Shown here piece by piece: positions 1-64,000 of a stretch of 64,000 nt of DNA. The stretch is taken from NCBI GenBank assembly GCA_965206985.1, contig CBDBLF010000011.1:91384-155383 (forward strand), in the 5' to 3' direction. Below the pieces are notes generated by a model that was not told where the DNA came from, made no database searches, and worked only from the letters and a program-made list of their open reading frames with translations. Source of the DNA: Spirochaetota bacterium (GTDB lineage: Bacteria; Spirochaetota; Leptospiria; Turneriellales; CBDBES01). The translations under genes were made by a program, and so were the position numbers. Numbering within the stretch: position 1 is the first letter of the stretch; each line of letters opens with the position of its first letter.

Positions 1-775
1 TTTGATATTCTGATAAATTAATTTCTTTATATTTAATTGTTTTATTCAATGATTCGGCATGAGCGTTTTCATACACATTACCACGACACATGGAAATATT
101 GATTCTACTTTCTTCTAATAGAGCGATATACTCATTTGAGCAATATCTGACGTCAGCATCAGTATGATGGTAGTAATTTTGTAAATCTCCTATTTCTCTT
201 TTAAGCGAAAGAAAGGCTGCTATGACCAGTTGGGTGTTATTTTTATCAGAAATGGCCGCTCCTACGATACGGCGACTCATAAGCCTCATGAGCAAAGCTA
301 AATAGTGGTCTTTCGAATTAATATCAAAATAGGTTATATCGCCAACAATTACCTTGAAGGGATCAGCTTGCACACTTTTAATCAAATTGGGATATTTTCT
401 GAAATTATGCTTAGATTGGGTAGTTTTTGGCTTCAAAAACACCTTTTTAGTGCATAAAAGTCTATTTTCTTTCATAATTCGGTAAACTCGCTTCTTATTT
501 ATTGTAAAGCCTCTATCTTTTAGAATTTGCGTCATCGAGATATAACCTACTTGGTTCAATTGATCACTAATTTCATGGATAGATTTTAGAATCGTTGAAT
601 CATCTTTCTTCTCCTTCGACTTATAATAATAAGTTGACTTTTCTAGTTTCATAACTCTGCAACTCCTTGTGATCCCAAATTCTGTGCTGAGGCTATTCTT
701 GATAATTTCTCTTTTTGCCTGTATTCTTGAAGAAGTTTTTCCGTTTTTTTTAAAATCTGATTTTCTATCATTAAG
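1..775 (-). CDS. IS3 transposase OrfB (DDE), partial, reached by -1 frameshift
   Basis: Manual translation is open from 775 to base 1: CRVMKLEKSTYYY, INKKRVYRIMKENRL, VGDITYF, SRRIVG, HHTDADVRY, ISMCRGNVYENAHAESLNKTIK. Confidence 0.85.
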
Positions 776-999
776 TCAGATAAGGCCGATTCTAAATAGG
801 AAATTTTTTTTCTCAATTCTAACTCAACCCCATTTTTATCTTCAAAGCCTTCGGAAACCAGCTGTCGCTTCCATCTCGATAAAGTTGCGACTGAAATCAT
901 CTCTCTCTTAGATATTTCTGCCGTGCTAGTCTGACCTGAAATCATCTCCAAAGCCAATCTCTCTTTTGCTTCCTTACTGTATCTTTGTCTTTTAATCAT
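649..999 (-). CDS. IS3 transposase OrfA (HTH)
   Basis: RYSKEAK...ALEM...STAEISKREMIS..TLSRWK HTH pattern; AGGAGG RBS upstream of ATG at 999. Confidence 0.85.
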   Translation of the reverse strand: MIKRQRYSKEAKERLALEMISGQTSTAEISKREMISVATLSRWKRQLVSEGFEDKNGVELELRKKISYLESALSDLMIENQILKKTEKLLQEYRQKEKLSRIASAQNLGSQGVAEL

Positions 1000-1055
1000 A
1001 GTTTTACCTCCTAAATTTAACACAATAAAGTGTCCAGTTTTAGGGGGTTAAACCA

Positions 1056-3041: not shown

Positions 3042-3098
3042 GTAAAAAATCATAAATCGCATTAGATGCAAAACGTTGAATGCTAAGAAAAAAAACAC

Positions 3099-3149
3099 CT
3101 AGATGTTTTGGTTAATAATGCAGGTTATGGTTTGTATGGGTCAGTCATT
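3099..3149 (+). pseudogene. Relic of a short-chain dehydrogenase gene
   Basis: Translates LDVLVNNAGYGLYGSVI (SDR NNAG motif) with no surrounding ORF. Confidence 0.55.
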
Positions 3150-3327
3150 CTTTTCATGATATAATAACTTCTTTAAATTTGTTGTATAGGCTAGAATGAG
3201 AAGAAATAACCTCATAACAACCATATTTCCCACACAGCCTCTTTTAGAGAATGAATTTTCCATTTGGTTTTAGTATTCGACTAACCTTTCATTATACCAT
3301 TCAAAAAACTCATTAGATTTTTTCTTA

Positions 3328-3340
3328 TTTTTTTTTTTTT
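3328..3340 (+). repeat. Poly-T13 tract upstream of GLUG gene 2
   Basis: 13 consecutive T about 100 bp before the start codon at 3439. Confidence 0.9.
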
Positions 3341-3438
3341 CTCTGTTAATTCTTTTTTTCTCCGTTAATTCTATATATTGTTAGTTAAGTAAGTGCAAGG
3401 TAAGAACAGATAAGCTAGCCCATATAAAGAGTTTTATT

Positions 3439-6702: not shown

Positions 6703-7806
6703 ATGGGCAGTAGTTTAGGTAGAATTTTTCGAGTAACTACTTTTGGTGAATCCCATGGAGAAGGACTTGGTTGTGTTATCGAAAATTGTCCCGCAGGAGT
6801 AGTGCTTTCCACAGCAGAAATTCAATATGAACTCAATCGAAGAAAACCGGGGCAAAGCAAGGTGACCACTCCCCGTAAAGAAAGTGACGAAGTAAATATT
6901 GTATCAGGTATCTTTGAAGGAAGAACAATTGGCAGTCCAATTATGATGCTTGTTTATAATAAAAATGTACATTCGAAAGACTATGAAGACTTCAAAGATA
7001 CTTTTCGTCCTTCCCATGCTGATTATACCTACCAGATGAAATATGGATATCGTAGTTTTTTGGGGGGTGGGCGCGCCTCGGCGAGAACAACCATCGGAGT
7101 TGTGGCAGCGGGTGCTTTAGCGAAGAAAATACTAAAAGAAAAAGCAAAAATTGATTTATGTGGCTACGTTTCTCAAGTTGAGAATGAGAGTTTAAGTCAA
7201 GATTTTGCACTCCCTTCTTCGTTAGAACTTTTGAAAAAAGAAATTGAAAAAAACCCTATACGCTGTCCTGACCAATTTTTGGCAAAAAAAATAGAGACCC
7301 GCATCCAAAAGATCCGTCAAGAAGGTGATTCACTAGGAGGTATCATTGAGCTTATTATTGAAAACGTGCCCGCAGGATTGGGAGATCCTACTTTTGATCG
7401 TCTTGATGCTCTTTTAGCCCACGTTATGTTGTCCATACCAGCAACAAAAGGAGTTGATATTGGCAGTGGATTTCAAGGAGTTTCGATGAAAGGCTCCGAA
7501 CACAACGATATTTTTTTTAATGATGCTGGTACGATAAAAACAAAAACTAACTTTTCAGGTGGCATTCAAGGAGGCATTAGCAACGGAGAGCCGATTCGAT
7601 TACGTATTGCTTTTAAACCAACAGCTACGGTCTCAAAAGAGCAAAAGACAGTAAAACAAGATGGAAGCGACACTCTTCTAAAAGTAAAAGGGCGACATGA
7701 CCCTTGTGTTTTGCCAAGAGCGGTTCCTATTGTGGAAGCTTTGGCCGCTCTCACCTTGGCTGACCAATATCTATTATCTCAGCTTTCTGATTATAGCAAA
7801 CTCTAA
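6703..7806 (+). CDS. aroC: Chorismate synthase
   Basis: TTFGESHG, RPSHAD, GGRASAR, GGISNGEPI, GRHDPCV motifs. Confidence 0.97.
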   Translation: MGSSLGRIFRVTTFGESHGEGLGCVIENCPAGVVLSTAEIQYELNRRKPGQSKVTTPRKESDEVNIVSGIFEGRTIGSPIMMLVYNKNVHSKDYEDFKDTFRPSHADYTYQMKYGYRSFLGGGRASARTTIGVVAAGALAKKILKEKAKIDLCGYVSQVENESLSQDFALPSSLELLKKEIEKNPIRCPDQFLAKKIETRIQKIRQEGDSLGGIIELIIENVPAGLGDPTFDRLDALLAHVMLSIPATKGVDIGSGFQGVSMKGSEHNDIFFNDAGTIKTKTNFSGGIQGGISNGEPIRLRIAFKPTATVSKEQKTVKQDGSDTLLKVKGRHDPCVLPRAVPIVEALAALTLADQYLLSQLSDYSKL

Positions 7807-7888
7807 AAGAAATTATTTTCGTTGAATTATACTTTTCAGATACAATGAACTGAAATAAAAAATTGACTGGTTACGTCATTTTGACCGA

Positions 7889-9472
7889 ATGTCCTCTGTT
7901 AGTCTTTATTCTTTTTGTATGTACCCGCTCTCTATTTTTATTTTTGCTCTCTACACTGTTGATGTCTTGATGATGCTTTATTTTGGTGTGCACTGCTATA
8001 TTATGCTATATTTGTATCTTAAAAATGGTAATAGATGCCACTCTGCGGGGATAGGGCTGGAATTGGAAGACACTAAAAAAATGAACGAATACCCGCATAT
8101 TACTGTCCAATTGCCAATTTTTAATGAATACTATGTGACGGGTCGCCTTATCGACGCTGTTGCTTTACTTGATTACCCCAAAGATAAACTGGAGATACAA
8201 GTTTTAGACGATTCCACCGACGAGTGTAAAGGTTTAGCCATAAGAAAGGTAAACCATTACCAGAAACTAGGTTTTGATATTCAACACATTCACAGAACTA
8301 ACAGAGAAGGGCATAAAGCAGGAGCCCTCAAGATGGGACTAGTAAAAGCTAAAGGCGAATTCATTGCTATTTTTGATGCCGATTTTGTTCCCACTTCTGA
8401 CTTCTTACAGAAAACGGTTCCGTTCTTCTACACTGATAGAAAAATTGGCATGGTGCAGGCTCGTTGGGGGCATGTGAACGACAATTATTCGCCTCTGACA
8501 AAAGCTCAAAGCATCGGGGTTGATGGACATTTCATGATTGAGCAAGTAGCCCGCAATGCTTCTGACCTGTGGATGAATTTTAATGGAACTGCTGGCATAT
8601 GGCGTAGAGAGTGTATTATTGATGCCGGCAATTGGCACTATGATACCTTAACTGAAGACTTTGATCTTTCATACCGAGCTGAACTAAAAGGTTGGAAGTT
8701 CAAATATTTGAGTGATGTTCTTTGTCCTGCAGAGCTTCCAGCTACTGTTACTGCTTTTAAATCTCAACAATTTCGCTGGTGTAAAGGTTCCATCCAAACA
8801 GCTGTCAAACTCATTCCCAGAATTTTGAAGTCAAAAGAATCATTGAAAGTGAAAATGGAAGCACTCACACACTTGCTCAATTATTCAGTACACCCACTTA
8901 TTTACTTAAATATTTTATTGACGATGCCTCTGATGTATGTGCAAGAGATGGTTCTTCAAGTTCCACTGCATTTCATACTTCCAATCATGTTGTTTTTAGG
9001 CTTTGCGACAATGGGTCCGTTTGTATTTTACGCAGTTGCACAAAGAAGTTTATATCCCGTCGACTGGAAAAAAAGATTGCGCTTCTTGCCCGTTCTTTCT
9101 ATGATCGGTTCGGGTATATCTCTGAGTAACACCAGGGCTTGGCTAGAGGGTGTTCTTGGTAAACAATCTTCTTTCGTACGAACGCCTAAGCTTGGGATTA
9201 CCTCCAGTGAGACAATTCAAACAGTAAAGAAGAAAAGCCGTTATAATCATTCTAAAATTGACCTTATAATAATTTTGGAGTTTTGTACTCTGGTTTATAT
9301 TATCGGAACAATCTGTTATGCAATTTCCCAAGAAAAATGGTTTTTCATCCCCTACTTGTTGATTTACCTGTCTGGGTTTCTCTATATTAATTTCTTGAGT
9401 TTTTCTGATTATTTTAAAATAATGTTTGGATCAAGTCAAGATAAAAAAGAGTTTGAGCAAAGTTCTGCATGA
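7889..9472 (+). CDS. Processive GT2 glycosyltransferase (cellulose synthase/CslA-like)
   Basis: VQLPIFNE, DDSTD, KAG, IFDADF, TEDFDL, QQFRW (QxxRW) motifs and TM helices. Confidence 0.9.
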   Translation: MSSVSLYSFCMYPLSIFIFALYTVDVLMMLYFGVHCYIMLYLYLKNGNRCHSAGIGLELEDTKKMNEYPHITVQLPIFNEYYVTGRLIDAVALLDYPKDKLEIQVLDDSTDECKGLAIRKVNHYQKLGFDIQHIHRTNREGHKAGALKMGLVKAKGEFIAIFDADFVPTSDFLQKTVPFFYTDRKIGMVQARWGHVNDNYSPLTKAQSIGVDGHFMIEQVARNASDLWMNFNGTAGIWRRECIIDAGNWHYDTLTEDFDLSYRAELKGWKFKYLSDVLCPAELPATVTAFKSQQFRWCKGSIQTAVKLIPRILKSKESLKVKMEALTHLLNYSVHPLIYLNILLTMPLMYVQEMVLQVPLHFILPIMLFLGFATMGPFVFYAVAQRSLYPVDWKKRLRFLPVLSMIGSGISLSNTRAWLEGVLGKQSSFVRTPKLGITSSETIQTVKKKSRYNHSKIDLIIILEFCTLVYIIGTICYAISQEKWFFIPYLLIYLSGFLYINFLSFSDYFKIMFGSSQDKKEFEQSSA

Positions 9473-20676: not shown

Positions 20677-20748
20677 TCGGGCCGACTGGATTCGAACCAG
20701 CGACCACACGCCCCCCAGACGTGTGCGCTACCACTGCGCCACGGCCCG
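20677..20748 (-). tRNA. tRNA-Pro(GGG)
   Basis: Cloverleaf CGGGCCG...CACGT-CT GGG GG-GCGTG...GCTGG TTCGAAT CCAGT...CGGCCCG A; no encoded CCA. Confidence 0.93.
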
Positions 20749-20767
20749 TTTTTATTAGTAAATAGTG

Positions 20768-20840
<73 letters not shown>

Positions 20841-51889: not shown

Positions 51890-53665
51890 TTACCGTTGCC
51901 CGTTGAGTAGATCGCCATACATAGCTGGTGATGCACAGCCTATCATTGTTGCATTCAAGATGCATCGTTTGACGGCGGGGTTTTGCTGGTCAGTGCCTAA
52001 ATCCCACGCGTCGCCTAAATCAGGAAAAGCGCCGCTCGTTGCTTGCAGTTGGGTGAGCGTAAGCCCCACCGCACCCATGGGGTCGGCTGTAGCATCACCC
52101 TGCACTCGCTTGGGATTCTGGGGCGACCCATCTGTTGATTGAGGTGCGTCGGCGTTCCAATAGCTATTCGTGATCGTAAAAGTGGCATCAGAAGACCCCA
52201 CCAGACCACCGGAATAAGATTTAGAAGAAGAAGAAGAAACACCACCACTTCCAGAAAAATAGCTATTTGTGATCGTCAAAGAAGAAGAAAAACCCACCAG
52301 ACCACCGGAAAAAGAAAAAGAAGAACCAGAAGAAGCAGAAACACCACCACTCCCAGAAAAGTAGCTATTCGTGATCGTCAAAGAAACCGAAGAAGAACCC
52401 ACCAGACCACCGGAAGAAGAAGAAGAAGAAGAAGAAGAAGAAGAAACACCACCACTCCCAGAAAAATAGCTATTCGTGATCGTCAAAGTGGCATCAGAAG
52501 ACCCCACCAGACCACCGGAAAAAGAAGAAGAAGAAGAAGAAGAAGAAACGCCACCACTCCCAGAAAAGTAGCTGTTCGTGATCGTCAAAGAAGAAGAAGA
52601 ACCCACCAGACCACCGGAAGAAGAAGAAGAAGAAGAAGAAGAAACGCCACCACTCCCAGAAAAGTAGCTATTCGTGATCGTCAAAGAAGGAGAAAAACCC
52701 ACCAGACCACCGGAATAAGAAAAAGAAGAAGCATCAGAAGAAACACCACCAGAGATAACTCCTACATTGCGTATCTGAGCTGGGGTACCAGCTCGACCAA
52801 ATAAACCTGCATAGGCATTGCCTGAAGAAGAAATATTCACCCATAAACTAGCGATGGTGTAACCGTTACCCTCAAAAGTGCCCGTAAACCCGCCTGTGTC
52901 ATCACCCACTGGAACCCAACTGGTATCTTCGCTTACATCAATCACCATATGGTCTTTGCCCGCAACAGTCTTTTTGACCATGTTAATTTCGCCGTTACCG
53001 TTCGTATCAAGCAGGGGTAATAAATAAATGTTGGCCATGAGCTCGTAACCATTGCAACCACCTGTTGGGCAACCTTCATTGTCACCTGCATCCATTCTCG
53101 AGATTTTATAACTTGTGCCCGCCAAATCATAACGCATGTTGTCTAGCATTGTGGCAGTCCATATTTCGATGAGCCCATCGCTGTCAGAATCGGGCATGTA
53201 CGGCGTTACCGTTACGTTGACCGTATCATTCATCATGGCAAATTCAGTGAAATCCGCGTCATGCGATGCGCCCATGGCTATGTCATGGGTTATGGTACCT
53301 GTTATCTCGGTCATAATCATATCATCTGCATCACCTTCTCTTTTTACGGTAATCGTCTGGGGACTCGCACTAGTAGGCGCAAACGTAACCTCTGTTGGGG
53401 ATACCTCAAGAAAATCATTTGTGGAGGTTAGGGTTACTTTTACTGTTTTTCTTTCTGATGGTGGGCGCGACGCCGAAATCGTGTAGGTGGCACCCACTGC
53501 CCCACTCACGTCGCTGAAGGTGATTTCTGGAGTGCTGAGCTTTAAATTGGCCGGAGGGTCGTCGTCACTCTTACCGCATTGAAATAAAAAGCCCAAGACG
53601 AATATTAATAATATACCTCTCACCATTTTATTGCGCGCTCCATTCATTCTAGTATTTAGACTCAT
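51890..53665 (-). CDS. GLUG-repeat beta-helix surface lipoprotein copy B (5 rungs)
   Basis: GGAGG RBS, LGFLFQC lipobox, one Ig-like domain, DSDSDG motif, GLUG rungs with poly-Ser loops. Confidence 0.88.
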   Translation of the reverse strand: MSLNTRMNGARNKMVRGILLIFVLGFLFQCGKSDDDPPANLKLSTPEITFSDVSGAVGATYTISASRPPSERKTVKVTLTSTNDFLEVSPTEVTFAPTSASPQTITVKREGDADDMIMTEITGTITHDIAMGASHDADFTEFAMMNDTVNVTVTPYMPDSDSDGLIEIWTATMLDNMRYDLAGTSYKISRMDAGDNEGCPTGGCNGYELMANIYLLPLLDTNGNGEINMVKKTVAGKDHMVIDVSEDTSWVPVGDDTGGFTGTFEGNGYTIASLWVNISSSGNAYAGLFGRAGTPAQIRNVGVISGGVSSDASSFSYSGGLVGFSPSLTITNSYFSGSGGVSSSSSSSSSGGLVGSSSSLTITNSYFSGSGGVSSSSSSSSFSGGLVGSSDATLTITNSYFSGSGGVSSSSSSSSSSSGGLVGSSSVSLTITNSYFSGSGGVSASSGSSFSFSGGLVGFSSSLTITNSYFSGSGGVSSSSSKSYSGGLVGSSDATFTITNSYWNADAPQSTDGSPQNPKRVQGDATADPMGAVGLTLTQLQATSGAFPDLGDAWDLGTDQQNPAVKRCILNATMIGCASPAMYGDLLNGQR

Positions 53666-53716
53666 AAATTTAATTCCTCCTGCATTCTAATCCGTTTGTG
53701 ATTATTCGTGGAGCGT

Positions 53717-53744
53717 ACTATAAATAGTATGTGTACCAAGTCAA
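53717..53744 (-). promoter_or_regulatory. Putative sigma70 promoter/operator of GLUG copy B
   Basis: TTGACT-16-TATAGT; near-palindrome ATACTAT-TT-ATAGTAC over the -10. Confidence 0.6.
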
Positions 53745-54011
53745 CCACCATATACAAAAATTTTATAGAAACCAATCAGACATTTAGGTTGATTTTTGAA
53801 GGCTAATTGTCCACGATTACCGAATGGAGCACTTACCGCTTTCAGAAGCGGTGCTATGTTCTCGCTAGAAATACGACCATAGTTAACCCAATTAGAACTT
53901 TGAAAATATAATGCCGATCACGCAAGTGAAACCTGCAAACATGGTTCCACTAATTGATTGTATACTCTCTCGCCCTTGTGTGACGTAGGTAGAGCCTTTA
54001 CTCCTGTAAGG

Positions 54012-55829
54012 TTACCGTTGCCCGTCGAGTAGGTCGCCATACATAGCTGGTGATGCACAAGTCCCCGTTCCCGCCATATCAAGGATGCATCGTTTGACCG
54101 CGGGGAGTTGCTGCTCAGTGCCTAAAACCCACGCGTCGCCCAATAAATCAGGAAAGGTGCCACTCGTTGCTTGTAGTTCAGCGAGTGTAAGCCTCACCGC
54201 ACCCGTGGGGTCGGTCATCTCATCACCCCGCGCTCGCTTGGGATTCTGGGGCGACCCGTCTACTAATTGAGGTGCGTCGGTGTTCCAATAGCTATTCGTG
54301 ATCGTCAAAGAATCAGAAGAGAAACCCACCAGACCACCGGAATAAGAAATCGAAGAAGAGGAAGAAGAAACATCACCACTCCCAGAAAAATAGCTATTTG
54401 TGATCGTCAAAGTACCAATAGCAACACCCACCAGACCGCCAGAAGAAGAAAGCGAAGAAGAAGAAGAAGAAGAAGAAACACCACCACTCCCAGAAAAGTA
54501 GCTATTCGTGATCATAGAAGTGGCATCAGAAGAACCCACCAGACCACCGGAATAAGAAATCGAAGAAGAGGAAGAAGAAGAAACACCACCACTCCCAGAA
54601 AAGTAGCTATTCGTGATCGTCAAAGAAGAAGAAGAAGAACCCACCAGACCGCCAGAAGAAGAAATCGAAGAAGAGGAAGAAGAAGAAACACCACCACTCC
54701 CAGAAAAGTAGCTATTCGTGATCGTCAAAGAAAAAGAAGAAGAAGAAGAACCCACCAGACCACCAGAGAAAGAAGAAGAAGAAGCATCAGAAGAAACACC
54801 ACCACTCCCAGAAAAATAGCTATTCGTGATCGTCAAAGAAGCATCAGAACGCCCCACCAGACCGCCGGAAGAAGAAGAAGCAGAAACACCACCACTCCCA
54901 GAAAAATAGCTATTCGTGATCGTCAAAGAAGCATCAGAACGCCCCACCAGACCGCCGGAAGAAGAAGCATCAGAAACATCGCCAGAGATAATTCCTACAT
55001 TGCGTATCTCGGCTGAACCACCTGTCGCACCAAAGAAACCCGCATTGACATTGCTTGTAGAACTCACCCGGATGTTTGCGATCGTGTGGCCGTTACCCTC
55101 AAAAGTGCCCGTAAACCGGCTTCCACTATTACCTACCGGAACCCAACTGGCGTTTGAGCCTATATCAATCTTGGCCATGAGCTCGTAGCCGTTGCAACCT
55201 GTGTCTGGGCAACCTCTACTGTCATCTGCATCCATTGCCGAGGCTTTATAACTCGTGCCCGCCAGATCATGTCGCATCTTGTCTAGCATTCTGCCAGTCC
55301 ATATTTCAATGAGCCCATCGCCGTCAGAATCGGGGATATACGGCGTTACCGTCACGTTGACCATGCTCCCCATCATGGCAAATTCAGCGAACTCGGTGTC
55401 AGTAGTTATGGCATGCTCTATGGTACCTATTATCTCGTCCATAATAATATCAACCGCATCATTTGCTCTTTTTACGGTAATCGTCTGGGGGCTCGCATTC
55501 GTAGGCGTAAACATAACCCGCTTTGGGGATACCCCAAGCGATGGATCGGTGGAGGTTAGTTTTACCTCTATTGTTTTCTCTGCTGATGGTGGGCGTGACG
55601 CCGAAATCATGTAGGTGGCACCCATTGCCCCACTCACGTCGCTGAAGGTGACCTCTTGAGTACTGAGCTCTAAGGTGACCAGAGCAGGGTCGTCATCTTT
55701 GGCAGAGTCACCGTCTTTGACAGAATCGTCGCCTTTACCGCATTGAAATAAAAAGCCCAAGACGAATATTAATAATATACCCCTCACCATTTTACTAAAC
55801 ACTCCATTCATTCTAAGATTTAGACTCAT
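54012..55829 (-). CDS. GLUG-repeat beta-helix surface lipoprotein copy A (6 rungs)
   Basis: Tandem paralog of copy B; same leader and lipobox; lacks the DTNGNG segment. Confidence 0.88.
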   Translation of the reverse strand: MSLNLRMNGVFSKMVRGILLIFVLGFLFQCGKGDDSVKDGDSAKDDDPALVTLELSTQEVTFSDVSGAMGATYMISASRPPSAEKTIEVKLTSTDPSLGVSPKRVMFTPTNASPQTITVKRANDAVDIIMDEIIGTIEHAITTDTEFAEFAMMGSMVNVTVTPYIPDSDGDGLIEIWTGRMLDKMRHDLAGTSYKASAMDADDSRGCPDTGCNGYELMAKIDIGSNASWVPVGNSGSRFTGTFEGNGHTIANIRVSSTSNVNAGFFGATGGSAEIRNVGIISGDVSDASSSGGLVGRSDASLTITNSYFSGSGGVSASSSSGGLVGRSDASLTITNSYFSGSGGVSSDASSSSFSGGLVGSSSSSFSLTITNSYFSGSGGVSSSSSSSISSSGGLVGSSSSSLTITNSYFSGSGGVSSSSSSSISYSGGLVGSSDATSMITNSYFSGSGGVSSSSSSSSLSSSGGLVGVAIGTLTITNSYFSGSGDVSSSSSSISYSGGLVGFSSDSLTITNSYWNTDAPQLVDGSPQNPKRARGDEMTDPTGAVRLTLAELQATSGTFPDLLGDAWVLGTEQQLPAVKRCILDMAGTGTCASPAMYGDLLDGQR

Positions 55830-55932: not shown

Positions 55933-56236
55933 GGTCGTGTCATATTTAATCAAAGTTTCCAATTAAAAAAGGAATTGACTTATCTCCCTTAAATTAAGGT
56001 TATGTCTCATTATGAACAAAAGAAAATATACCTTTGATACAAGTGGTTTTAGCTGTCAAAATACAGACTGCCATAAGTATCATAAGGTAAATGAAGGAAA
56101 TGTGCGCTTTGCTTATATGTCTGGTAAGTACAAACAAATAGCCTATTTAAAGTGCACCGCTTGTGGTAGATGCTTTTCAGAGAATAAAGGCACTATTTTT
56201 TTTCGTCGCAAGAAAAGCAAAGAAACCATTACTCGG
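55933..56236 (+). mobile_element. Truncated IS1 (left IR plus 5' part of insA)
   Basis: Matches the reverse complement of about 17623-17926; breaks off at ACCATTACTCGG and joins the phage sheath gene. Confidence 0.9.
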
Positions 56237-56894
56237 TGTCCGTTGCCCCCATGATATGTACAAATTTTGCCTGATGCTGTTGTCTGCTTGCATTCACACA
56301 AGCAAGGACATTCGCAACGGACGCGGTTGGAGCTGTACTTCGAAATGTATATGTATCGCCAGAAACAAAAGAATCAGTTGAAGTTGCCCCATCTGTAAAA
56401 ACGATATTAACACCAGCACCTAAGCTAATGGAACTTCCTGATGCAGGAGTCGTTATTTCTTCCGAAAATGTGTTTCCGCCATCTGATGATTTGCTGTAGA
56501 TTGCAGTGCCAGAGACTCCCGACTTAGTGATCTTGATTACAAAAGTACGCGAACCAGTGACCACTCCACTTGTTGTATGCGTGGCTGTCCCTGTCCCTTT
56601 ATGCACGAGGCTTCCGGTTGTGCCGGAAACATCAGCTTCTGCTCGTGCAAAAAGAATTTTGACAGGTGTTTGTTTCTTCGCTTGAGAGAACTCATTAAAG
56701 TAAACTCTGATTGCATCTAAAAGAGACCCCTGTTTGAGCACTTTCTTGGCATCGTAATAAGACGAGGCTTCATATACTTTATTGGCGACCCCTCCTTCAG
56801 CAACCCCAATTTTGAGGTGAATACCATCCGCACCTTTGGGTGTGCGTCCAACACCGCCATCGGTAAGAGTAATCTTTGCATCTCCTATGGCCAT
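56237..56894 (-). pseudogene. Tail sheath protein (DUF2586-like), 3'-truncated by IS1 sequence
   Basis: M...KITLTDGGVG....G.H.KIG....G..NK.Y, FVSGDTYTF...APT, FVHI.GA; only about 220 aa before the IS1 junction. Confidence 0.72.
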
Positions 56895-56896
56895 GA

Positions 56897-57103
56897 TTAA
56901 CCTCCTACCCCTTGGTTTAAATAATTGGTGATCGCCTGATCAAATACACTTTCAGTGGCTAAGCTTGCATGGGTAAGCCCCGCTTTAATTCCGGCTCCTC
57001 TGGCAATATACAAGCGAACATGCTTCATTCTTGCCCATTCTATAAATGTGAATTTACTTAATCCACTGGATTCTTCAATTTCTCTTTCTTCTTTTCTCTT
57101 CAT
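56897..57103 (-). CDS. Small phage protein preceding the sheath gene
   Basis: 68 aa, overlaps the upstream gene and abuts the sheath gene. Confidence 0.6.
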   Translation of the reverse strand: MKRKEEREIEESSGLSKFTFIEWARMKHVRLYIARGAGIKAGLTHASLATESVFDQAITNYLNQGVGG

Positions 57104-57660
57104 TGTCTAACTCCTATATTGTAATTTTCTATTGATCTGGAGAGCTGTGCGCATCTGTCTTTGTGGTAGATGATATCAAGAAACCGACATCTAAAAACCA
57201 ATTTTCTATATGTATTATCTACTATATCACCCACGATACCAACACTAGCGATCTGAAACTCTGTAATGGTTCCTTCTTCATTTTTGATGTTCTTCACATT
57301 GGCAAAGTGGGTATAAATCAGGTCTGTAATTGTATCTTGAGTGACTTCGCGAGCCAAAGAATGAAGCCAAAAGTCAATCGTATAGACAGTTTCTTCTAAA
57401 TAACGACTCCTTAGAATCTCTGTTTGGGTGACTCCCTCATCATCAATTACATCACGCACTAACCCAGAAGAGTCTGCCATTTCAAGATTACCTGGCTGAT
57501 GCTTGATTACACAACATGGTACACTTCTTTGGATTTGAGCAGGTTCAGGAATATACTCAAAGATTTTATTTTTTAGAAAGTAGTTTTCTGACCCATCTTG
57601 ATTTAGAATTATAAATCTGTTCAAAAAATGTTTCAATACAAAAATATGAAAGGATATCAT
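57100..57660 (-). CDS. Putative tail terminator/neck protein
   Basis: Position in the module; PCCV, YTIDFW beta pattern. Confidence 0.5.
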   Translation of the reverse strand: MISFHIFVLKHFLNRFIILNQDGSENYFLKNKIFEYIPEPAQIQRSVPCCVIKHQPGNLEMADSSGLVRDVIDDEGVTQTEILRSRYLEETVYTIDFWLHSLAREVTQDTITDLIYTHFANVKNIKNEEGTITEFQIASVGIVGDIVDNTYRKLVFRCRFLDIIYHKDRCAQLSRSIENYNIGVRQ

Positions 57661-58127
57661 CTGCCACCTCCCAAGGAAGCCTGGAAGCCTTTTCGTAATT
57701 CATCTTTAATTGCCTCTTCTGATTCTTTTAAAGCTGGCTCCAAATGAGGTCTAGCTGGGAGACCTCTTGCTTCAAAGCCGTATTCTAAAGCCCGAGCTTG
57801 TGGATAGTTTGATCCGATAGCGTACGAAAGTCGTTTTCTCTTAGCCACGCTAAAACTTTGTACGTAGTTTTGAGCTGGATTTGTACTCGTTGGCGAACGG
57901 TGTCCTGATATAAGAATATTTGTATTATTTCCTCGGGATTCTTTTTGCTCTAAATATTTGGCAGAAAGTGCTGGCCAGCTAGAAGACCACTTCTGTGCAT
58001 GAATGCCTTTTGTGACATTCGTTCGCAGTATTTCAGCTGAACGCCTTAGTGCGTGATCCATATTTTGCTCCACACTCTTAGAGTAGCCATCAAGTGCTTT
58101 AAAGAAATGTTCAAAACCTTGTGGCAT
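57657..58127 (-). CDS. HK97 gp10-like tail completion protein
   Basis: W.ALS.KY..QK, A..LEYG....LPARP.L.PA. Confidence 0.7.
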   Translation of the reverse strand: MPQGFEHFFKALDGYSKSVEQNMDHALRRSAEILRTNVTKGIHAQKWSSSWPALSAKYLEQKESRGNNTNILISGHRSPTSTNPAQNYVQSFSVAKRKRLSYAIGSNYPQARALEYGFEARGLPARPHLEPALKESEEAIKDELRKGFQASLGGGR

Positions 58128-58597
58128 TATGCTCGTGCCTCTTCAATTTCATAAGATAACAATTCTGTGCGTTGATATTTTAGAGTTTTTAAAACTCTCT
58201 TGATGATATAGCGAACTCCACCTTTGACGTCTCCTGCTTCAATGGCACCACCTTCAAATATAATATCTCTAACAAGTAGAGGTAAATTATCTGAGCTAGA
58301 TTTGAGTAGCATAAGACGCACACTAGCCTCAGCCGAGGCACCCACTTCAGAAAAATTAAGTTTGTCTTTAGAATTAAGTTTCACACCCGTTAAGCTAAAA
58401 TGTTCTTTGGATTGTGTGGGTGTCACGTTAAGATTAGTCGTGGGTTCTACATTTGAAAAATCTAAAAAACCAGTAGATGAGGGCGAACGTGCTTGAGCAT
58501 GCTCGTTAGATTCTTCTCTGGTCATTTCAATTTGTCTCTCCACAATGAACGTTTGAGAATATTTTTTGATTTGATTCGCTACAATTTTATGCCACAT
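58127..58597 (-). CDS. Putative head-closure protein
   Basis: Position between adaptor and gp10-like genes; beta-rich. Confidence 0.45.
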   Translation of the reverse strand: MWHKIVANQIKKYSQTFIVERQIEMTREESNEHAQARSPSSTGFLDFSNVEPTTNLNVTPTQSKEHFSLTGVKLNSKDKLNFSEVGASAEASVRLMLLKSSSDNLPLLVRDIIFEGGAIEAGDVKGGVRYIIKRVLKTLKYQRTELLSYEIEEARA

Positions 58598-59018
58598 AGA
58601 TTCCTTTTCTTGTCTGAGGCTTCAGATATAAAATGGTTGCTCTTTCAGCTTTGATCAGCATCTCTTCAATCATTTGTTCTTTGTCTTGAGTACTCAACTG
58701 GGATAGCTCAAGCATTAAATCTGAGCCCAAGTCTAGTTTTTTAGGCTCTAGTGTTCGACGTAAAAAAACATCGGGTAAAATTAAATGCAAGCAGAGGTAA
58801 TACTCTGCCTGCCTTAAACGTCGAAATAGCATTTGATTTATTTTTGCCAAAGCTGATCGATATGTATCCTCTGATACCCAACTCTGAAGTCTGAGCGAGG
58901 CTTCTTCAATGTAGCCTATCACAAAGGCTTCCCACTCTTCTTCGCTCAAACCAAAAAATCCTGCATCCAAACCAATCGCTTTTAGATCGTTTGGTTCAAT
59001 AAGGGTATTCAGAGTCAT
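58587..59018 (-). CDS. Putative head-tail adaptor
   Basis: Follows the major capsid gene; helical, EAS.RLQ.WV...Y, L.QAE..L. Confidence 0.5.
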   Translation of the reverse strand: MTLNTLIEPNDLKAIGLDAGFFGLSEEEWEAFVIGYIEEASLRLQSWVSEDTYRSALAKINQMLFRRLRQAEYYLCLHLILPDVFLRRTLEPKKLDLGSDLMLELSQLSTQDKEQMIEEMLIKAERATILYLKPQTRKGIYVA

Positions 59019-59065
59019 AATTATTTACCTTAAGAAGTTTCTAGGCTTACTTCTCCTGCTTCATC

Positions 59066-60100
59066 TCAATAATCAAAGACCAATGAGCCTTTTTGCATAA
59101 GTTTTCTGAACCCACAGACTTTAGAGATTACAATTTTATTTAGTTGTTTATCAATCAACTTATCAGTTTCTGAGAGATTTGACCCTTTCTCTTCGACGAA
59201 CTCTAGTGCGGATGCCTTGTTTAGACCAACGATTTTATCAGATGCCATCGCTGTATTTTTTTTGAGCTCACTGCCAAAAGGGGTAAACATCTTGCCAGAA
59301 TTAAGAAAATCTTTCACAACGTACGAAGACTTGAATTCATTCGTCGAAAGAATTGTGTTAATTGTATCAGTATTCGCAATCCAGATGTCGGACTCATACG
59401 GATCAAATTTTAGAAAAAATTTGGTTAGGTCAGCGTAAGTAATCGATCCGGCCGTGCTTGCTGTGACCGTTGTTGCTGAATTGTTATTCCCGTCACCATT
59501 AATCAAGGTATCGATACCCTCAGAGACAATGTCTTGTGATAGTTTCATTCCGATAGCTCGTATTGTTGTCGCGAGCACGTTTGTTTTTACTCTTCGGATT
59601 GCCTCATAGCTTGACTCGATCGAAGTACCAATTTTTGATAATTCAATCGCCGTGTTCGATAGAGTAAGTTTCACTTTTGGGAATTCTGCACCCTCGGCGA
59701 CACCTCTCATTTGGATTTTATCATCAAAATCGGCAAATAGACCCCGGTAATCTTTAGAATCAATCATAGTCTTAGTTGCTATGATGTCTTCTATCTTAGC
59801 AGTCATCTTGCCCATCAGCATACCTAGCATAATATTCTGATTCCAAAATTCAGGAAACAAAATTTTTGTCGCACTTGTTTTGAAAAAATCTTCTACAAGG
59901 CTCGCGGCACCTCCTGCGATCTTAATTCCATGTGCCAAAAGTTGGCGACCATAAGAGCCCAGCTCTGACAGTTTACCCGAATATTCGTTACCCTCCTTTG
60001 CATCAATTTTATCAAGATATTCAGAAAAACTAAGACCCTCGTCTTTCGCTTGCCCGTACATATCCTTATCTAATTTTAATTCTTTTATATTTTTTGACAT
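59066..60100 (-). CDS. Major capsid protein (HK97 fold)
   Basis: LFPE, VAEGAE.P, K.G..IE.SYEA.RR, LINGDGN.N.A; 344 aa in the canonical position. Confidence 0.85.
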   Translation of the reverse strand: MSKNIKELKLDKDMYGQAKDEGLSFSEYLDKIDAKEGNEYSGKLSELGSYGRQLLAHGIKIAGGAASLVEDFFKTSATKILFPEFWNQNIMLGMLMGKMTAKIEDIIATKTMIDSKDYRGLFADFDDKIQMRGVAEGAEFPKVKLTLSNTAIELSKIGTSIESSYEAIRRVKTNVLATTIRAIGMKLSQDIVSEGIDTLINGDGNNNSATTVTASTAGSITYADLTKFFLKFDPYESDIWIANTDTINTILSTNEFKSSYVVKDFLNSGKMFTPFGSELKKNTAMASDKIVGLNKASALEFVEEKGSNLSETDKLIDKQLNKIVISKVCGFRKLMQKGSLVFDY

Positions 60101-60123
60101 TTATTTTCCTCCTAAATATTTTG

Positions 60124-60492
60124 TTAGCCTAAAAAGACTTTGATTTTTTTATCTGTTGTATCAATGTTGACAACCAGTCGCTTGTGTGAATTAGCGTTCA
60201 CTTCTACCTTGCCTGAGCCTGCCGAACGTAACCCCTGATAGCCTACAGTGGGAGCTGTCCCACTATACGTTAAGCTAACAAAACCTGTGAGTAACACTGT
60301 ACAAAACTTCTTCTCTATTGATTCTACAACACCATGAAAGTCATCGTTATCACTAGACAAAGCCACCGTGTCATCAGAAGATATTTTCACTGGCTTTAAC
60401 TCGTCAGTGCCCTTTGTCAGGGTTGAATGTTTGAAGGTTGCCCGCACATCGTTGCCGATTCCTTCATAAGTTATTTTGTCAAATAATCCCAT
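60124..60492 (-). CDS. Capsid decoration/cement protein
   Basis: 122-aa beta-rich protein between protease and capsid genes. Confidence 0.65.
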   Translation of the reverse strand: MGLFDKITYEGIGNDVRATFKHSTLTKGTDELKPVKISSDDTVALSSDNDDFHGVVESIEKKFCTVLLTGFVSLTYSGTAPTVGYQGLRSAGSGKVEVNANSHKRLVVNIDTTDKKIKVFLG

Positions 60493-60512
60493 ATTTTAAC
60501 CTCTCTTCATTT

Positions 60513-61757
60513 TTAATTTTTATAATCTTCAATATTGAGCTCATCAGATGTATCTGATTCAGAATTTAGTATTGAAGACTGTCTCGTTTCTTTTGGCAGA
60601 TGAAGCTTAGACGCCTCATCTTTGTAATCTTTGTAAAGAGCCTTGAGTGTCCTGAGTTCGCAGGTCTCTAATATTGTGAGTATTGCCTGATCAGACCGAT
60701 CGCCTTTACAAAGCTGATACAGGTTTTTTGTTTCTTGGCGTAGGCTGGCAATATAATCGTTACCCATCTCTGTAGACACCTTGATGTCTTGGAGATGCGC
60801 CTCAATCTCTTCTGCTGACAACTCGCTTGCGTCCTCACCAATCAAAGTAGATAGTGGATTGCTTAGTGCGCTAATCCGCACACTTAATTTCTCTGCTTCT
60901 CTTTCCTTCCGTTTTACATTAATCTTAAATTGCGCCAAAATGCCATTCAGCGTTGACTGCTTTAGATCAACTTCCTCAACATTTTCGTCTAAAAACTCTG
61001 GCAATTCTAAACCAAGCTCTTTCGCTATTTTTTTTGTTAGTTTCATAGTTTTTTCTTTTCCTCCATTGTTTTCATTTTGTTGTGGGGAGTCTGGGGATAA
61101 CATACCATCTGCTTGCCTCTCTTCTGTCGTGGGTGTCACATCTTTTATTTGATTGATTGGAAAGAGACTCGCTCGTCTTGTAGCGTAAGGGTCAGCCCCT
61201 TGATAGACTAACGATATTTCTCTATAGCCTGTAATACAAGTGACAATCAGGCTGACCATTTCACCATCCACCTCTTCACCAAGCACACGCCAGAAGTCGT
61301 CTCTAGCATGGCTTTTTTCCCAAAGAAAATTAAAGCCAACCGATACCGAGTGCAACGCACCAAGCCTGATCCCTTCTACAATTCGCTCGTTTTGTGATTT
61401 AGGTATTTGCAATTTTACGTTGATACCATTGGGCTCAGAAGTATCGTCCCACTTAACAGAAAGAACACTGCCCAACCACTGATTAACATCTGTCGTATGG
61501 TTTGGATAAACAGTTTGGTTTTTGAGCAGGCGGGCAGATGATTTTAGAACATTCTTTTTTTCTAAATTTAAATAATGCCCAGGAACAATAATTTTAGAAA
61601 GAGCTCTAAACACAGGATACACATATGTTTCATCTTCTTCTAGCTTAATATTCTTAGGTGGAAGTGGTGAGCTGGCTAGATCAACCTCTCCGGTAAGTTG
61701 GTCACGATCTAAATAAAGATTTACTTTATTTTCATATTCTTCTTTTTTCCCCATCAT
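60513..61757 (-). CDS. Prohead protease with C-terminal scaffold
   Basis: VY.NH, SVSVGF, EISLVY.GAD; coiled-coil tail; GGGAGA RBS before ATG 61757. Confidence 0.78.
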   Translation of the reverse strand: MMGKKEEYENKVNLYLDRDQLTGEVDLASSPLPPKNIKLEEDETYVYPVFRALSKIIVPGHYLNLEKKNVLKSSARLLKNQTVYPNHTTDVNQWLGSVLSVKWDDTSEPNGINVKLQIPKSQNERIVEGIRLGALHSVSVGFNFLWEKSHARDDFWRVLGEEVDGEMVSLIVTCITGYREISLVYQGADPYATRRASLFPINQIKDVTPTTEERQADGMLSPDSPQQNENNGGKEKTMKLTKKIAKELGLELPEFLDENVEEVDLKQSTLNGILAQFKINVKRKEREAEKLSVRISALSNPLSTLIGEDASELSAEEIEAHLQDIKVSTEMGNDYIASLRQETKNLYQLCKGDRSDQAILTILETCELRTLKALYKDYKDEASKLHLPKETRQSSILNSESDTSDELNIEDYKN

Positions 61758-61965
61758 ATCATTTCTCCCAAAACCCCTTGAGGGGTTCAATGTATGTTCT
61801 GGGGATGTCAGGTGCGATTTTATGTCACAACCTGTCTGTACGATCGCCTCTAAGCTATTGAATAGCCTTGCCTATCGCTTTTGTTTCTAAAACTGGGGAG
61901 TAACTACGTTTTGCCTCAAACCGCCTTACATGGCAATGAGAGGGCTTTTCTATATTTTTACTTTA

Positions 61966-62313
61966 TCATGCCAACTCTGTCATTGGCTCCTCTATATGCT
62001 GGGCTGTCCCAGATTGAGTATAAAAAAGACGTTCTGCAATGTCTCTGACATGCGGGGGAAGTTTCTCTAACGGGTAGTCGCCGTGAGCAATGGAAGGGTA
62101 ATGAGAACGCCAACTGCTATCTTCAGTTGCACCAACAACCATTTCGTAGGAATCAAACTCTGCGGCGTTTTCAATTAAAAAAATATCTGCCTCTTTGTCG
62201 TTTGCCTTGTTCATGTCATAAAGTTTTAGCTTAAAAGAGTCTTCAAATTCAACAGACCCAAAATCCCTAAGAGCCTCCAACGTGAATTCAAGTTTTTCTT
62301 TTAGGCCTCTCAT
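61966..62313 (-). CDS. Small acidic protein, candidate immunity protein
   Basis: 115 aa, ATGA overlap with the MuF-toxin stop; not part of the canonical head gene order. Confidence 0.55.
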   Translation of the reverse strand: MRGLKEKLEFTLEALRDFGSVEFEDSFKLKLYDMNKANDKEADIFLIENAAEFDSYEMVVGATEDSSWRSHYPSIAHGDYPLEKLPPHVRDIAERLFYTQSGTAQHIEEPMTELA

Positions 62314-64000
62314 TTTAATTCCATCGCAAATTTAAAATATTCATCCACATCGTATTTCATCGCAAAAGAGCTTGTGATTCTATGCTCATTCATATCTACA
62401 ATCGTTACAACGTTCATCGCAGAGTTATAAAAACCAACCCTGTCAGCACCCGACGGCTTTCTGCCAATGGCATGAGCATGAGGGAAAACACGGTCAAAAT
62501 CATTCAGAACCCTGCGACTTAACTGTATATAATCCTCTTGCGTTTTGACAAGCACATTTTTTCCATATGTTCTAAATTCATCTTTGTGATCTTTAAAGTG
62601 CTTCAAAAACAGATTGTTTTTCTTATCTTTCAGCTTCGTGTCGATCCACTGCGAGCCTCTGGCTGAATTGATCTTTGATGCCATTTCTTCATTCGTCAAA
62701 CCCTTGTAATATTTTCTGGTTTTTTCCAGACGATCTATAGCCAGTTGCCTTCGTTTAGTGGATTCACGATCAATGATCTTCTTATCAGGCCAGTTGGGTT
62801 TCTTGAGTGTCTGACCGGTTTGGGTGACCACGGTCTCTGGCAAACCCACCACAGTGGTCGTTCTACATCTACCGTGGTAGGGTGGTAGCTTCACCGAAAG
62901 ACCAGAAAGTATTTTCCTCGTCGATACACCCTGTGGCACGCTCTTTGGCCAAGGAAAGTTTTTAACCACCTGATCGGGTTCAGTGGTCATCACCTCTTTC
63001 ACATAGGTTGAGGCAACCTTCGTGCTGATCCGCCGTCCGCTCATCGTACGGCAAATATCAGATGTCTTCTTGTCAATCACTGCTACAATCTCTAGCGTCT
63101 GTATGCCGATCTCCTCAAAAGTCATGGTGCGTGCAAAGTTACGGCTCTTATTCACAGCATTAGAAATCACCAAACGGTAGTGATTCATTGTGTGGCGGTC
63201 TTTCATAACCTCGGGCACGGCGTGATCTAAAAGTGAAATGATCTCTTTTTCTGTTTTGCCGATTCCCTTCAAAGAATCTAAAACAGCCTCTTTGAGCGGT
63301 GCGTCTAAGCCACCAACCACTTTGCCAAAATCAAACCTTTGTTGAGCCACAAAAAAATCAATCGCATCTTGGTCATTTGCATGCTCGCCAATAATCGTAC
63401 CTGCCTCCGTTTTGACCTCTGAGCCGGCTTGCCAAATTCGTTTGGTATATTCCACGATTGTTGGAACAAGCTCTTGAGGAATATCTTTTTTGATCCGTTT
63501 AGAAATAAGCTCTTGAATCTCTCTCTCTGCTCTTCTCTCTTTGACCATTTTCTTGATCAGATTAGTAAGGGTTACAACCTCATTTCCATACTTAGCTAAA
63601 AACTCTTGGGTCGCTTCACGCTCAAGCATTCGCCCTTTCAATACTTCTTTTCTTTTTTTATTCATTGGAGATGATTCGTTGAGAGCTTTTTTTTTTACTA
63701 GATTTCCGTTCGGGAAATCTAGCATCGCCTCAGAAAAACCACTACCGCTAGTTTTTCCTCGGGGATACTCGCTACCGTTCGGGAAATCTAGCATCGCCTC
63801 AGAAAAACCACTACCGCTAGTTTTTCCTCGGGGATACTCATCACCGTTCGGGAAATCTAGCATCGCCTTAACCTGCTTTTCTTTGCCCGTTGCCTTTTCA
63901 TAGCCCAGCTCCCGTGCTGCTGTATCTATATCAATGATTCCTGCTTGATATTTCATGAGTATAACTCTAGTTTTGATCTCTGTGGCTTCTGCATTTTCTT
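62310..64000 (-). CDS. Portal C-terminus fused in frame to MuF (SPP1 gp7-like) minor head protein with putative C-terminal RNase toxin; 5' end outside the window
   Basis: Frame open to base 64000 (ENAEATEIKTRVILMKYQAGIIDIDTAARELGY, portal-like tail); MuF motifs DKKTSDICR and LPPYHGRCRT; C-terminal HFKDHKDEF...YIQLS...GFY...ITSSF. Confidence 0.75.
   Translation of the reverse strand, partial: ENAEATEIKTRVILMKYQAGIIDIDTAARELGYEKATGKEKQVKAMLDFPNGDEYPRGKTSGSGFSEAMLDFPNGSEYPRGKTSGSGFSEAMLDFPNGNLVKKKALNESSPMNKKRKEVLKGRMLEREATQEFLAKYGNEVVTLTNLIKKMVKERRAEREIQELISKRIKKDIPQELVPTIVEYTKRIWQAGSEVKTEAGTIIGEHANDQDAIDFFVAQQRFDFGKVVGGLDAPLKEAVLDSLKGIGKTEKEIISLLDHAVPEVMKDRHTMNHYRLVISNAVNKSRNFARTMTFEEIGIQTLEIVAVIDKKTSDICRTMSGRRISTKVASTYVKEVMTTEPDQVVKNFPWPKSVPQGVSTRKILSGLSVKLPPYHGRCRTTTVVGLPETVVTQTGQTLKKPNWPDKKIIDRESTKRRQLAIDRLEKTRKYYKGLTNEEMASKINSARGSQWIDTKLKDKKNNLFLKHFKDHKDEFRTYGKNVLVKTQEDYIQLSRRVLNDFDRVFPHAHAIGRKPSGADRVGFYNSAMNVVTIVDMNEHRITSSFAMKYDVDEYFKFAMELK
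63687..63696 (-). repeat. A10 homopolymer at the portal/MuF junction
   Basis: GTA AAA AAA AAA GCT; an A9 allele gives TGA overlapping the ATG at 63665. Confidence 0.9.
63706..63868 (-). repeat. 69-bp in-frame tandem repeat (about 2.4 copies; AMLDFPNGxEYPRGKTSGSGFSE)
   Basis: 25-nt core CCGTTCGGGAAATCTAGCATCGCCT at 63706, 63775, 63844. Confidence 0.92.

Follow-up and report, generated by a model that had tools for sequence, protein, structure and literature searches.

What does a run of ten adenines do at the point where a phage portal gene passes into the gene for a MuF-like minor head protein, and is the run genuine? The question is raised by a stretch of 64,000 nt from a Spirochaetota bacterium (GTDB lineage Leptospiria; Turneriellales), contig CBDBLF010000011.1, positions 91,384 to 155,383, which is referred to as the window throughout. 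Near its end, the tail of a portal protein, a tandem repeat, an uninterrupted run of ten A (A10) and MuF share one open frame on the minus strand. An earlier note on this DNA had read the run as a possible slippage switch setting the ratio of free portal to toxin-loaded portal subunits, and had held a homopolymer error or a recent inactivating slip to be equally possible. Our comparison with relatives suggests that a recoding (slippage) site is conserved at the portal/MuF junction, with the A10 run as the window's version of it; such a site would give both portal and a portal-MuF fusion, and we assign this reading a probability of roughly 0.72.

The elements of the junction, in the order in which they are read, are the following.

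63869-64000, minus strand: C-terminal region of the portal protein, cut by the window end (..ENAEATEIKTRVILMKYQAGIIDIDTAARELGYEKATGKEKQVK); it matches PHROG families phrog_2662 and phrog_3753 and aligns with the portal tail of full-length fused homologs.
63706-63868, minus strand: 69-bp (23-aa) in-frame tandem repeat, with 2.4 copies, 96% matches and no indels according to Tandem Repeats Finder (TRF).
63697-63723, minus strand: perfect 10-12 bp stem-loop (GCTAGATTTCC-CGAAC-GGAAATCTAGT), adjoining the run at its first A.
63687-63696, minus strand: A10 slippery run at the portal/MuF junction, read GTA AAA AAA AAA GCT (V K K K A).
63658-63664, minus strand: alternative-frame stops, TGA at 63664-63662 in the +1 frame (equivalent to an A9 message) and TAA at 63660-63658 in the -1 frame (equivalent to an A11 message).
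62841-63665, minus strand: core of the MuF-like minor head protein, matching phrog_9907 at 3e-34 and also phrog_241 and phrog_115.

Translation of the window leaves the minus-strand frame open from 63998 to a stop at 62312-62310. Along this frame the portal-like tail (..AARELGYEKATGK..) is followed by the 23-aa repeats, the junction (..NGNLVKKKALNESSPMNKKRKEV..), seven more codons and the MuF ATG at 63665-63663, which is in frame with the portal tail and begins a coding sequence of 451 aa plus stop (62310-63665). Past the run, the 0 frame remains open for 458 codons, the -1 frame for 9 and the +1 frame for 8. A hypothetical message with nine A would continue AAG CTC TCA ACG AAT CAT CTC CAA TGA, its TGA overlapping the MuF ATG, and with eleven A reading would end at the TAA; either of these stops would yield a portal-only product. 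The description in the earlier note of the position of the run, the repeats, the open frame into a MuF of 451 aa, the overlap of TGA and ATG with A9 and the stop with A11 is correct on direct reading. Its statement that the frame is open from beyond the window end through the portal is right for the portal tail but probably not for the whole portal, which the source genome calls as two proteins of 323 aa (P0018) and 588 aa (P0001). Runs of at least nine A or T are nothing unusual in the AT-rich window (n = 16). The position of this one is far beyond chance, because the same junction is occupied in 23 diverged lineages.

These lineages were assembled from several sources. A protein search returned 16 relatives, one group of them of about 370-460 aa and the other of about 875-890 aa; the longer proteins are full portal-MuF fusions. 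The DNA of relatives was taken from viral contigs, GTDB genomes, JGI metagenomes and two ENA contigs, and their junctions were analysed by script; the relatives on genome contigs came from an alignment-based scan, while a single-protein scan of the genome contigs gave none. Junctions were grouped into lineages at 90% identity over the 150 nt flanking the run on each side, which resulted in 23 lineages including the window and its relative L098. All 23 carry an uninterrupted run at the portal/MuF junction, A10 in 18 and A9 in five, and never a shorter one. The flanking proteins are only about 30% identical to those of the window, and the GC content of the loci ranges from 34% to 56%. According to the genome records, the hosts are Leptospiria, Leptospirales, Turneriella, several Spirochaetes/Spirochaetota metagenome-assembled genomes (MAGs) and one Planctomycetales bin. 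In about 40 more distant MuF loci from the same scans, which serve as a control, portal and MuF are ordinary separate genes, and the boundary between them has no homopolymer.

The conservation concerns the nucleotides themselves. Elsewhere in these open reading frames (ORFs) AAA makes up 31-80% of the lysine codons, and the probability that all three lysines of the junction are AAA in every lineage is about 1e-16, which argues for a constraint at the nucleotide level beyond the KKK peptide. Even loci of 53-56% GC, and loci that use AAG more often than AAA for lysine, have a run of pure A, and other A/T runs of at least nine occur in the loci of the family at 0.037 per kb. The family is small: 18 of 1.84 billion representative proteins match at E <= 1e-30, none of them in cultured-phage records. 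Searches of 50,697 phage records with blastn and tblastn found no close relative, only distant MuF cores, and an exact-match search of viral contigs for the window's own sequence found none. The family is a small group of uncultivated tailed phages and prophages of Spirochaetota with Leptospirales-like hosts.

The relatives fall into two layouts. In the 15 split lineages the portal frame ends 2-26 codons past the run, and MuF lies without exception in the -1 frame, where it is open for 412-476 codons. Thirteen of these lineages have no ATG, GTG or TTG in the MuF frame for at least 94 nt past the run, and the conserved N-terminal motif E.GY..EFFEIY sits within this startless stretch; in three split lineages the run itself is where the frame of MuF opens (TAA AAA AAA AAG ...). 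Since the frame lacks a start codon, full-length MuF in the startless lineages could be made only as a continuation of portal; ...LAKKKKLGDSITDVEK is an example of the trans-frame junction peptide predicted for the L008 type. The separate, ATGA-coupled MuF gene that had been pictured for an A9 version of the window is thus not the norm of the family. The database MuF entries P0009, P0012 and P0014, one of which is named 'phage head morphogenesis protein' by NCBI, begin at internal methionines past E.GY..EFFEIY and are N-terminally truncated annotations caused by unrecognised recoding.

The remaining eight lineages (the window, L098, L060, L002, L004, L011, L014 and L076) are fused, and in them both other frames end within 2-19 codons; over all lineages, split and fused, the frames other than that of MuF end within 2-26 codons. 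In four of the eight, reading in the -1 frame is ended by a stop exactly two codons past the run (AAG CGx TAA/TGA or AAG CAG TGA), although the fused frame encodes different amino acids there. Fused and split lineages mostly share the same A10, and the difference between them is the codon phase in which the portal frame enters the run, not the number of A. In a neighbour-joining tree of MuF, the fused lineages occupy at least three separate clades interleaved with split ones, i.e., at least three switches; judged by this tree, the polarity has flipped repeatedly and the run was kept each time. The comparison of homologs for fused versus split arrangements, proposed in the earlier note, thus found both, nearly all with A9 or A10, which is the opposite of a family that is always split and has no A-tract.

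The 69-bp repeat is a variable linker in the portal tail, directly upstream of the slip site. This linker is prone to tandem duplication of its repeat unit: the 23-aa unit is present in 2.4 copies in the window and in about 8.4 copies in P0017, a near-identical fusion protein, and in L098 (4400-4636) the same linker position holds a unit of about 17 aa (GLEGIEPDGKIIRENLH) that is unrelated and present three times.

A run of nine A or T is enough for efficient slippage by bacterial RNA polymerase, the RNA-DNA hybrid of which spans 9-10 bp (Atkins et al. review, PMC5009743). Slippage by RNA polymerase is our favoured mechanism, because the run is as long as this hybrid and is often accompanied by a 5' hairpin; the uniform -1 direction would fit as well, since one extra A in the mRNA amounts to a -1 shift. 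The stem-loop of the window has a predicted stability of -19.2 kcal/mol (z = -4.84), none of 200 shuffled sequences was as stable, and its empirical p against random locus positions is 0.014, so that it is a candidate nascent-RNA stimulator of polymerase slippage. A hairpin that abuts the run on its 5' side was found at p < 0.1, relative to random positions in the same loci, in 9 of the 23 lineages (Fisher combined p = 2.6e-5). No intrinsic terminator was predicted at the hairpin and A-run, and the predicted fold of the 60 nt downstream of the run is no more stable than that of shuffled sequence (mean z = -0.12 over the 23 lineages), i.e., no structure of the frameshift-stimulator kind was detected there.

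Programmed -1 ribosomal frameshifting may add to polymerase slippage; that ribosomes slipping on A_AAA_AAG or A_AAA_AAA are themselves the working mechanism is a tentative alternative, which we consider rather unlikely. Exactly a -1 shift is needed in all 15 split lineages; in the portal frame, seven of these read A_AAA_AAG and the others A_AAA_AAA or A_AAA_AAC. These lineages have the layout of a -1 frameshift, with an X_XXY_YYZ heptamer and the second ORF in the -1 frame (the window itself being in frame), and the -1 stops placed two codons past the run in four fused lineages would suit it too. Seven bases would suffice for ribosomes, yet the run is never shorter than nine and never interrupted, the downstream stimulator is missing, and the structure, where present, is 5'-adjacent as would fit polymerase slippage; as an mRNA longer by one A would lead to the same -1 result, the direction cannot separate the two mechanisms. 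Termination-reinitiation was set aside, because the split lineages have no start codon close to where the portal frame ends.

For the clade of the window, the in-frame A10 is most likely the true native state, as the sequences of its relatives indicate. The 1073-aa full-length fusion P0017, which lies on a separate 19-kb contig and belongs to the 90% cluster of the window's product, has the identical junction NGNLVKKKALNESSPMNKK. The nearest relatives of the window are L098, a 944-aa fusion beside an intact terminase gene with the same 'GTA AAA AAA AAA' phase, and L060, which is fused with A9; both have the same codon phase downstream of the run as the window. Eleven further A/T runs of 9-10 bases inside genes of the window are all spanned by intact ORFs.

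19263, 20346, 20418, 25427, 29919, 31184, 34907, 40221, 40318, 47320 and 47748: the eleven intragenic A/T runs, in host genes, two of them in a TonB-dependent receptor gene.

With these eleven runs, the genome tolerates many potentially slippage-prone sites. A sequencing or assembly error, or a recent random slip from a true A9 with separate portal and MuF, would have something to recommend it, as the A9 version would resemble the A9, phase-3, A_AAA_AAG type of L062, L063 and L072 with its TGA overlapping the ATG, and a slip would not be selected against in a decaying prophage. However, the independent contig of P0017 with its identical in-frame junction, the two other fused relatives in the same downstream phase and the eleven runs that leave ORFs intact make it very improbable, and not the equal possibility that it was first taken for. 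A contingency locus, at which slipped-strand mispairing in the DNA would switch between fused and split phage genotypes, is likewise improbable. A homopolymer of 9-10 bases has sufficient length for slippage during replication, and both genotypes occur in the family and even in the same sample (L001 split, L098 fused); against this, the run length is constant within each of the eight lineages recovered in at least two assemblies or contigs, fused and split forms differ in upstream codon phase on mostly the same A10, and L001 and L098 differ across the whole linker and not in the run alone. The run was found both in contigs with SPAdes or MEGAHIT names and in complete long-read-style chromosomes. 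These mixed assembly types, the stable run lengths and a difference that lies in phase rather than in A count are the reasons why a homopolymer mis-call and DNA phase variation are both disfavoured.

Very improbable as well is that there is no recoding at all, the run being part of a lysine-rich linker of AT-rich phages and the split loci being dead genes or systematic under-calls. The KKK peptide is conserved in the protein of both products, and an under-call of one base would always mimic the need for a -1 shift. Against this stand the pure-A runs at 53-56% GC and in AAG-preferring loci, and the presence of the run in Illumina-type assemblies and long-read-style chromosomes alike; moreover, the fused lineages share A10, so that a uniform under-call would break those instead. 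The dead-gene reading is disfavoured because MuF frames that have no start remain intact over more than 400 codons, as they do in all 15 split lineages.

Several points weigh against a conserved recoding site and its role in the window. The lineages share ancestry, and the probabilities given above therefore overstate their independence. Three relatives (L005, P0008 and P0011) are fused without any run, hence a portal-only product is not indispensable. A clear abutting hairpin is present in only about 9 of the 23 lineages. In the window's clade MuF has an in-frame ATG, and independent initiation is possible there, and the window copy lies in a defective prophage, the portal of which appears to be interrupted already. 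L001, the closest split relative, lies on a contig of 4x coverage with fragmented terminase and portal genes and may hold errors. Finally, the production of two products, their ratio and the identity of the machine that slips are inferred from sequence. As regards L001, both its terminase (148 + 377 aa) and its portal (237 + 211 aa) are broken into two pieces (2816-5959), and the same sample yielded a sister contig, L098, in which both are intact; errors of assembly are the probable cause of the breaks, and the 'split' junction of L001 is to be treated cautiously.

The run, its nucleotide conservation, the frame relations, the missing MuF starts and the nearby stops are observed directly, and a conserved slip site would connect them in the following way. 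RNA polymerase would slip on the A9-A10, aided in many lineages by the nascent-RNA hairpin abutting the run, and two proteins with a common N-terminus would result, portal by itself and a portal-MuF fusion, through which MuF, together with its C-terminal domain, would be covalently attached to some of the portal subunits. In most lineages portal would be the default and the fusion would need a -1 shift, i.e., one extra A in the mRNA. In the clade of the window the polarity would be reversed, with the fusion as the default and a message one A longer or shorter ending 8-9 codons on as portal-only. The likely role of such a site would be to fix the proportion of portal subunits that carry MuF. 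The slippage switch between free portal and toxin-loaded portal suggested in the earlier note is thus strongly backed as regards a slip site at the junction, by fused and split homologs sharing A9 or A10, but its toxin part is unproven.

The proposed arrangement has parallels outside phage heads. In Thermus thermophilus dnaX the long product is in frame, and a run of nine with stops in both other frames leads to about 50% of the short product; dnaX genes of reverse polarity have also been described (PMC5009743). The window and the seven other fused lineages resemble this tau/gamma arrangement in having a run of at least nine A/T in the coding sequence, a long zero-frame product, near stops and a shared N-terminus, and the 15 split lineages resemble the reverse-polarity dnaX genes. 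The two systems differ in that the genes are unrelated (clamp loader there, portal and minor head protein here), that slippage here is predicted from sequence, and that many lineages add a 5'-adjacent hairpin. In Roseiflexus IS630 a stem-loop 5'-adjacent to the slippage motif stimulates slippage (Penno et al. 2015, as reviewed in PMC5009743). The hairpins of our family are also immediately 5' of the motif, with the perfect 10-12 bp stem of the window reaching the first A; however, the T5C5 motif of IS630 strictly needs its hairpin, whereas the run here is long enough unaided and is joined by a hairpin only in some lineages. With the -1 frameshifts of E. coli dnaX and of the G/GT tail chaperones, the split lineages share a heptamer of the A_AAA_AAG type, a short zero-frame product and a trans-frame fusion, and conservation across diverged phages; the probable function, fixing the ratio of two assembly proteins, is also shared with G/GT. 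Unlike G/GT, the genes are the head portal and MuF rather than tail chaperones, the run is always 9-10 bases and not a heptamer, and there is no downstream stimulator.

Among phage head genes, portal-MuF fusion genes are known from Microbacterium phages of clusters EA3/5/8 and EB (PMC7302621). Portal and MuF are in one ORF there as in our eight fused lineages; by description, to which this comparison is limited, they are plain fusions, with no slippery run or split form reported in that paper. The SPP1 MuF protein gp7 binds the portal and is present in 1-2 copies per capsid (PMC5576092). The gene order of gp6/gp7 is the same as here, and the low copy number of gp7 is the kind of sub-stoichiometry that a low-frequency fusion would give; in SPP1, however, the association is non-covalent, the genes are separate with a start of their own each, and the sequence similarity is marginal (Pfam MuF E = 0.014). 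No conserved portal/MuF slip site was found described in the literature, including the recoding review, the PRFect paper and full-text searches, the coverage of which is incomplete. Portal-MuF fusions, transcriptional slippage and -1 frameshifting are thus already known, and what appears to be new, in that we found no description of it, is a conserved slip site linking portal and MuF. We lean, with somewhat better than even confidence, towards a new class of recoding in phage head genes, by which a set fraction of the MuF cargo (possibly RNase-toxin-like) would be bound covalently to the portal dodecamer through poly-A transcriptional slippage, with a polarity flipped several times as in dnaX and with MuF systematically mis-annotated as N-terminally truncated.

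The features downstream of the MuF core are listed here with the rest of the head module.

62310-62840, minus strand: C-terminal domain with an H..KH..EF motif, ending ...MELK, with an alpha plus four-stranded beta fold (AlphaFold2 and family alignment).
61966-62313, minus strand: 115-aa gene with an ATGA overlap with MuF (translational coupling), matching phrog_9741 at 8e-9.
56229-61790, minus strand: rest of the head module, with protease/scaffold (60513-61790), a 122-aa gene (60124-60492), major capsid (59066-60100), head-tail genes and a truncated DUF2586 gene (56229-56894).

The C-terminal 176 aa were modelled by AlphaFold2 with a mean predicted local distance difference test (pLDDT) score of 83, as helices followed by a four-stranded sheet. 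The best fold match in the PDB is 8ey4_A, a chain of a CdiA-CT toxin/immunity complex that could be either partner (probability 1.00, E = 0.019, TM-score 0.65 on the target), and weaker matches include CdiA-CT from NC101. A fold search of BFVD gave no informative match, no toxin family was matched by sequence in Pfam, and sequence searches of the PDB, run with one protein and with a profile, returned no match. The domain and the small gene that follows it may possibly be a toxin/immunity pair with an RNase-toxin-like fold, as the model suggests. In common with the MuF polymorphic toxins (Jamet et al. 2017, PMC5576092), there is a MuF-like gene after portal with an extra C-terminal domain, a small coupled gene and a prophage location. 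In contrast to them, the C-terminal domain and the small gene are conserved throughout the family, with no toxin domain detected by sequence and a weak fold match: the domain is homologous over its full length in all relatives, and the pair is not swapped between them, which speaks against placing it in the polymorphic class. The toxin label given to the protein in the earlier note is thus unproven, with only a weak match to the fold of a CdiA-CT complex and a domain that is conserved rather than polymorphic.

The homolog of the 115-aa gene directly follows MuF in 22 of the 22 lineages in which it was sought, mostly with the same 1-nt overlap; this count leaves out L005, which has no ORF there, and L076, where the gene runs off the contig. 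Its C-terminal motif W.W..IA.G.YPLEKLPDHVRD.A..LYY is strongly conserved. In L060 the small MuF-coupled gene is in tandem duplicate (7641-8342).

The assignment of the two fused parts relies on PHROG profiles. The N-terminal halves of the full-length fused homologs match phrog_3753 'portal protein' at 1e-62 to 1e-108, and the minor-head and head-morphogenesis matches of MuF span 3e-34 to 1e-8, the best of them, phrog_9907, being 'minor head protein and DNA pilot'. In the family alignment an invariant motif, PPYHGRCRTTT, lies in the MuF core at 62885-62853. In Pfam, neither the fused ORF nor the genes around it had a significant match to MuF, portal or toxin families, and only PHROGs were informative; PF04233 Phage_Mu_F reached E = 0.014 and 16.6 bits, under its cut-off of 29.6 bits. 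MuF is placed immediately downstream of portal, and the order of the head module, portal tail, MuF, protease/scaffold and major capsid, is the same as in L001.

The prophage of the window is a defective relic which has lost its tail module, and in which the slip site probably no longer does its job. The head module ends in the DUF2586 gene, which covers only positions 2-130 of the 386 of the profile, i.e., the first third. Beyond this stump lie GLUG proteins of higher GC, two near-identical copies of an insertion sequence (IS), glnA and other host genes. The portal, too, is broken: the source genome calls P0018 as an N-terminal portal fragment that ends ...TETYAGVV and P0001 from MHLTLAGLD, only 26 codons beyond the window end, and the two are continuous in the intact P0017. 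The simplest reading of these sequences would be an interruption just outside the window by a premature stop at the tyrosine codon after ...TETYAGVV, about 50 codons past the window end. L060, on the chromosome OZ253494 of a Leptospiria MAG and the closest genome match, is a stump as well, in which the portal begins mid-protein at 5494 and the adjoining host genes at 1-5500 include histidinol dehydrogenase (hisD), isocitrate dehydrogenase (icd) and a flotillin-like gene.

Some other features of the window deserve a mention. The two adjacent GLUG-motif genes of about 600 aa directly after the truncated DUF2586 gene (51890-55829) have a GC content of 0.455-0.47, versus about 0.38 elsewhere, and may be a separate insertion. 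The two IS copies, both on the minus strand (35531 to about 37413 and 49526 to about 51408), encode a DDE_Tnp_1_6 / DUF772 transposase of about 606-610 aa, share a perfectly identical block of 666 nt and differ by fewer than 10 mismatches over about 1.9 kb. The genes for tRNA-Pro(GGG) and tRNA-Val(TAC) lie side by side on the minus strand at 20677-20840, far from the prophage remnant. The longest homopolymer of the window is a T13 at 3328-3340, about 45 nt upstream of an open frame of 926 codons on the plus strand (3385-6162).

For the window, our results move the reading of the A10 run from a possible error to the relic of a real, conserved signal. Recoding between portal and MuF is invisible to standard gene callers, as 13 of the 15 split lineages have no MuF start. 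If our reading is true, the portal-MuF slip site would be the counterpart, on the head side, of the G/GT frameshift of the tail chaperones. The way in which phages load internal head proteins on the portal in a small and constant number is poorly understood, and such a slip site, by turning a fraction of the portal subunits into fusions, would provide these phages with a simple genetic way to set that number.

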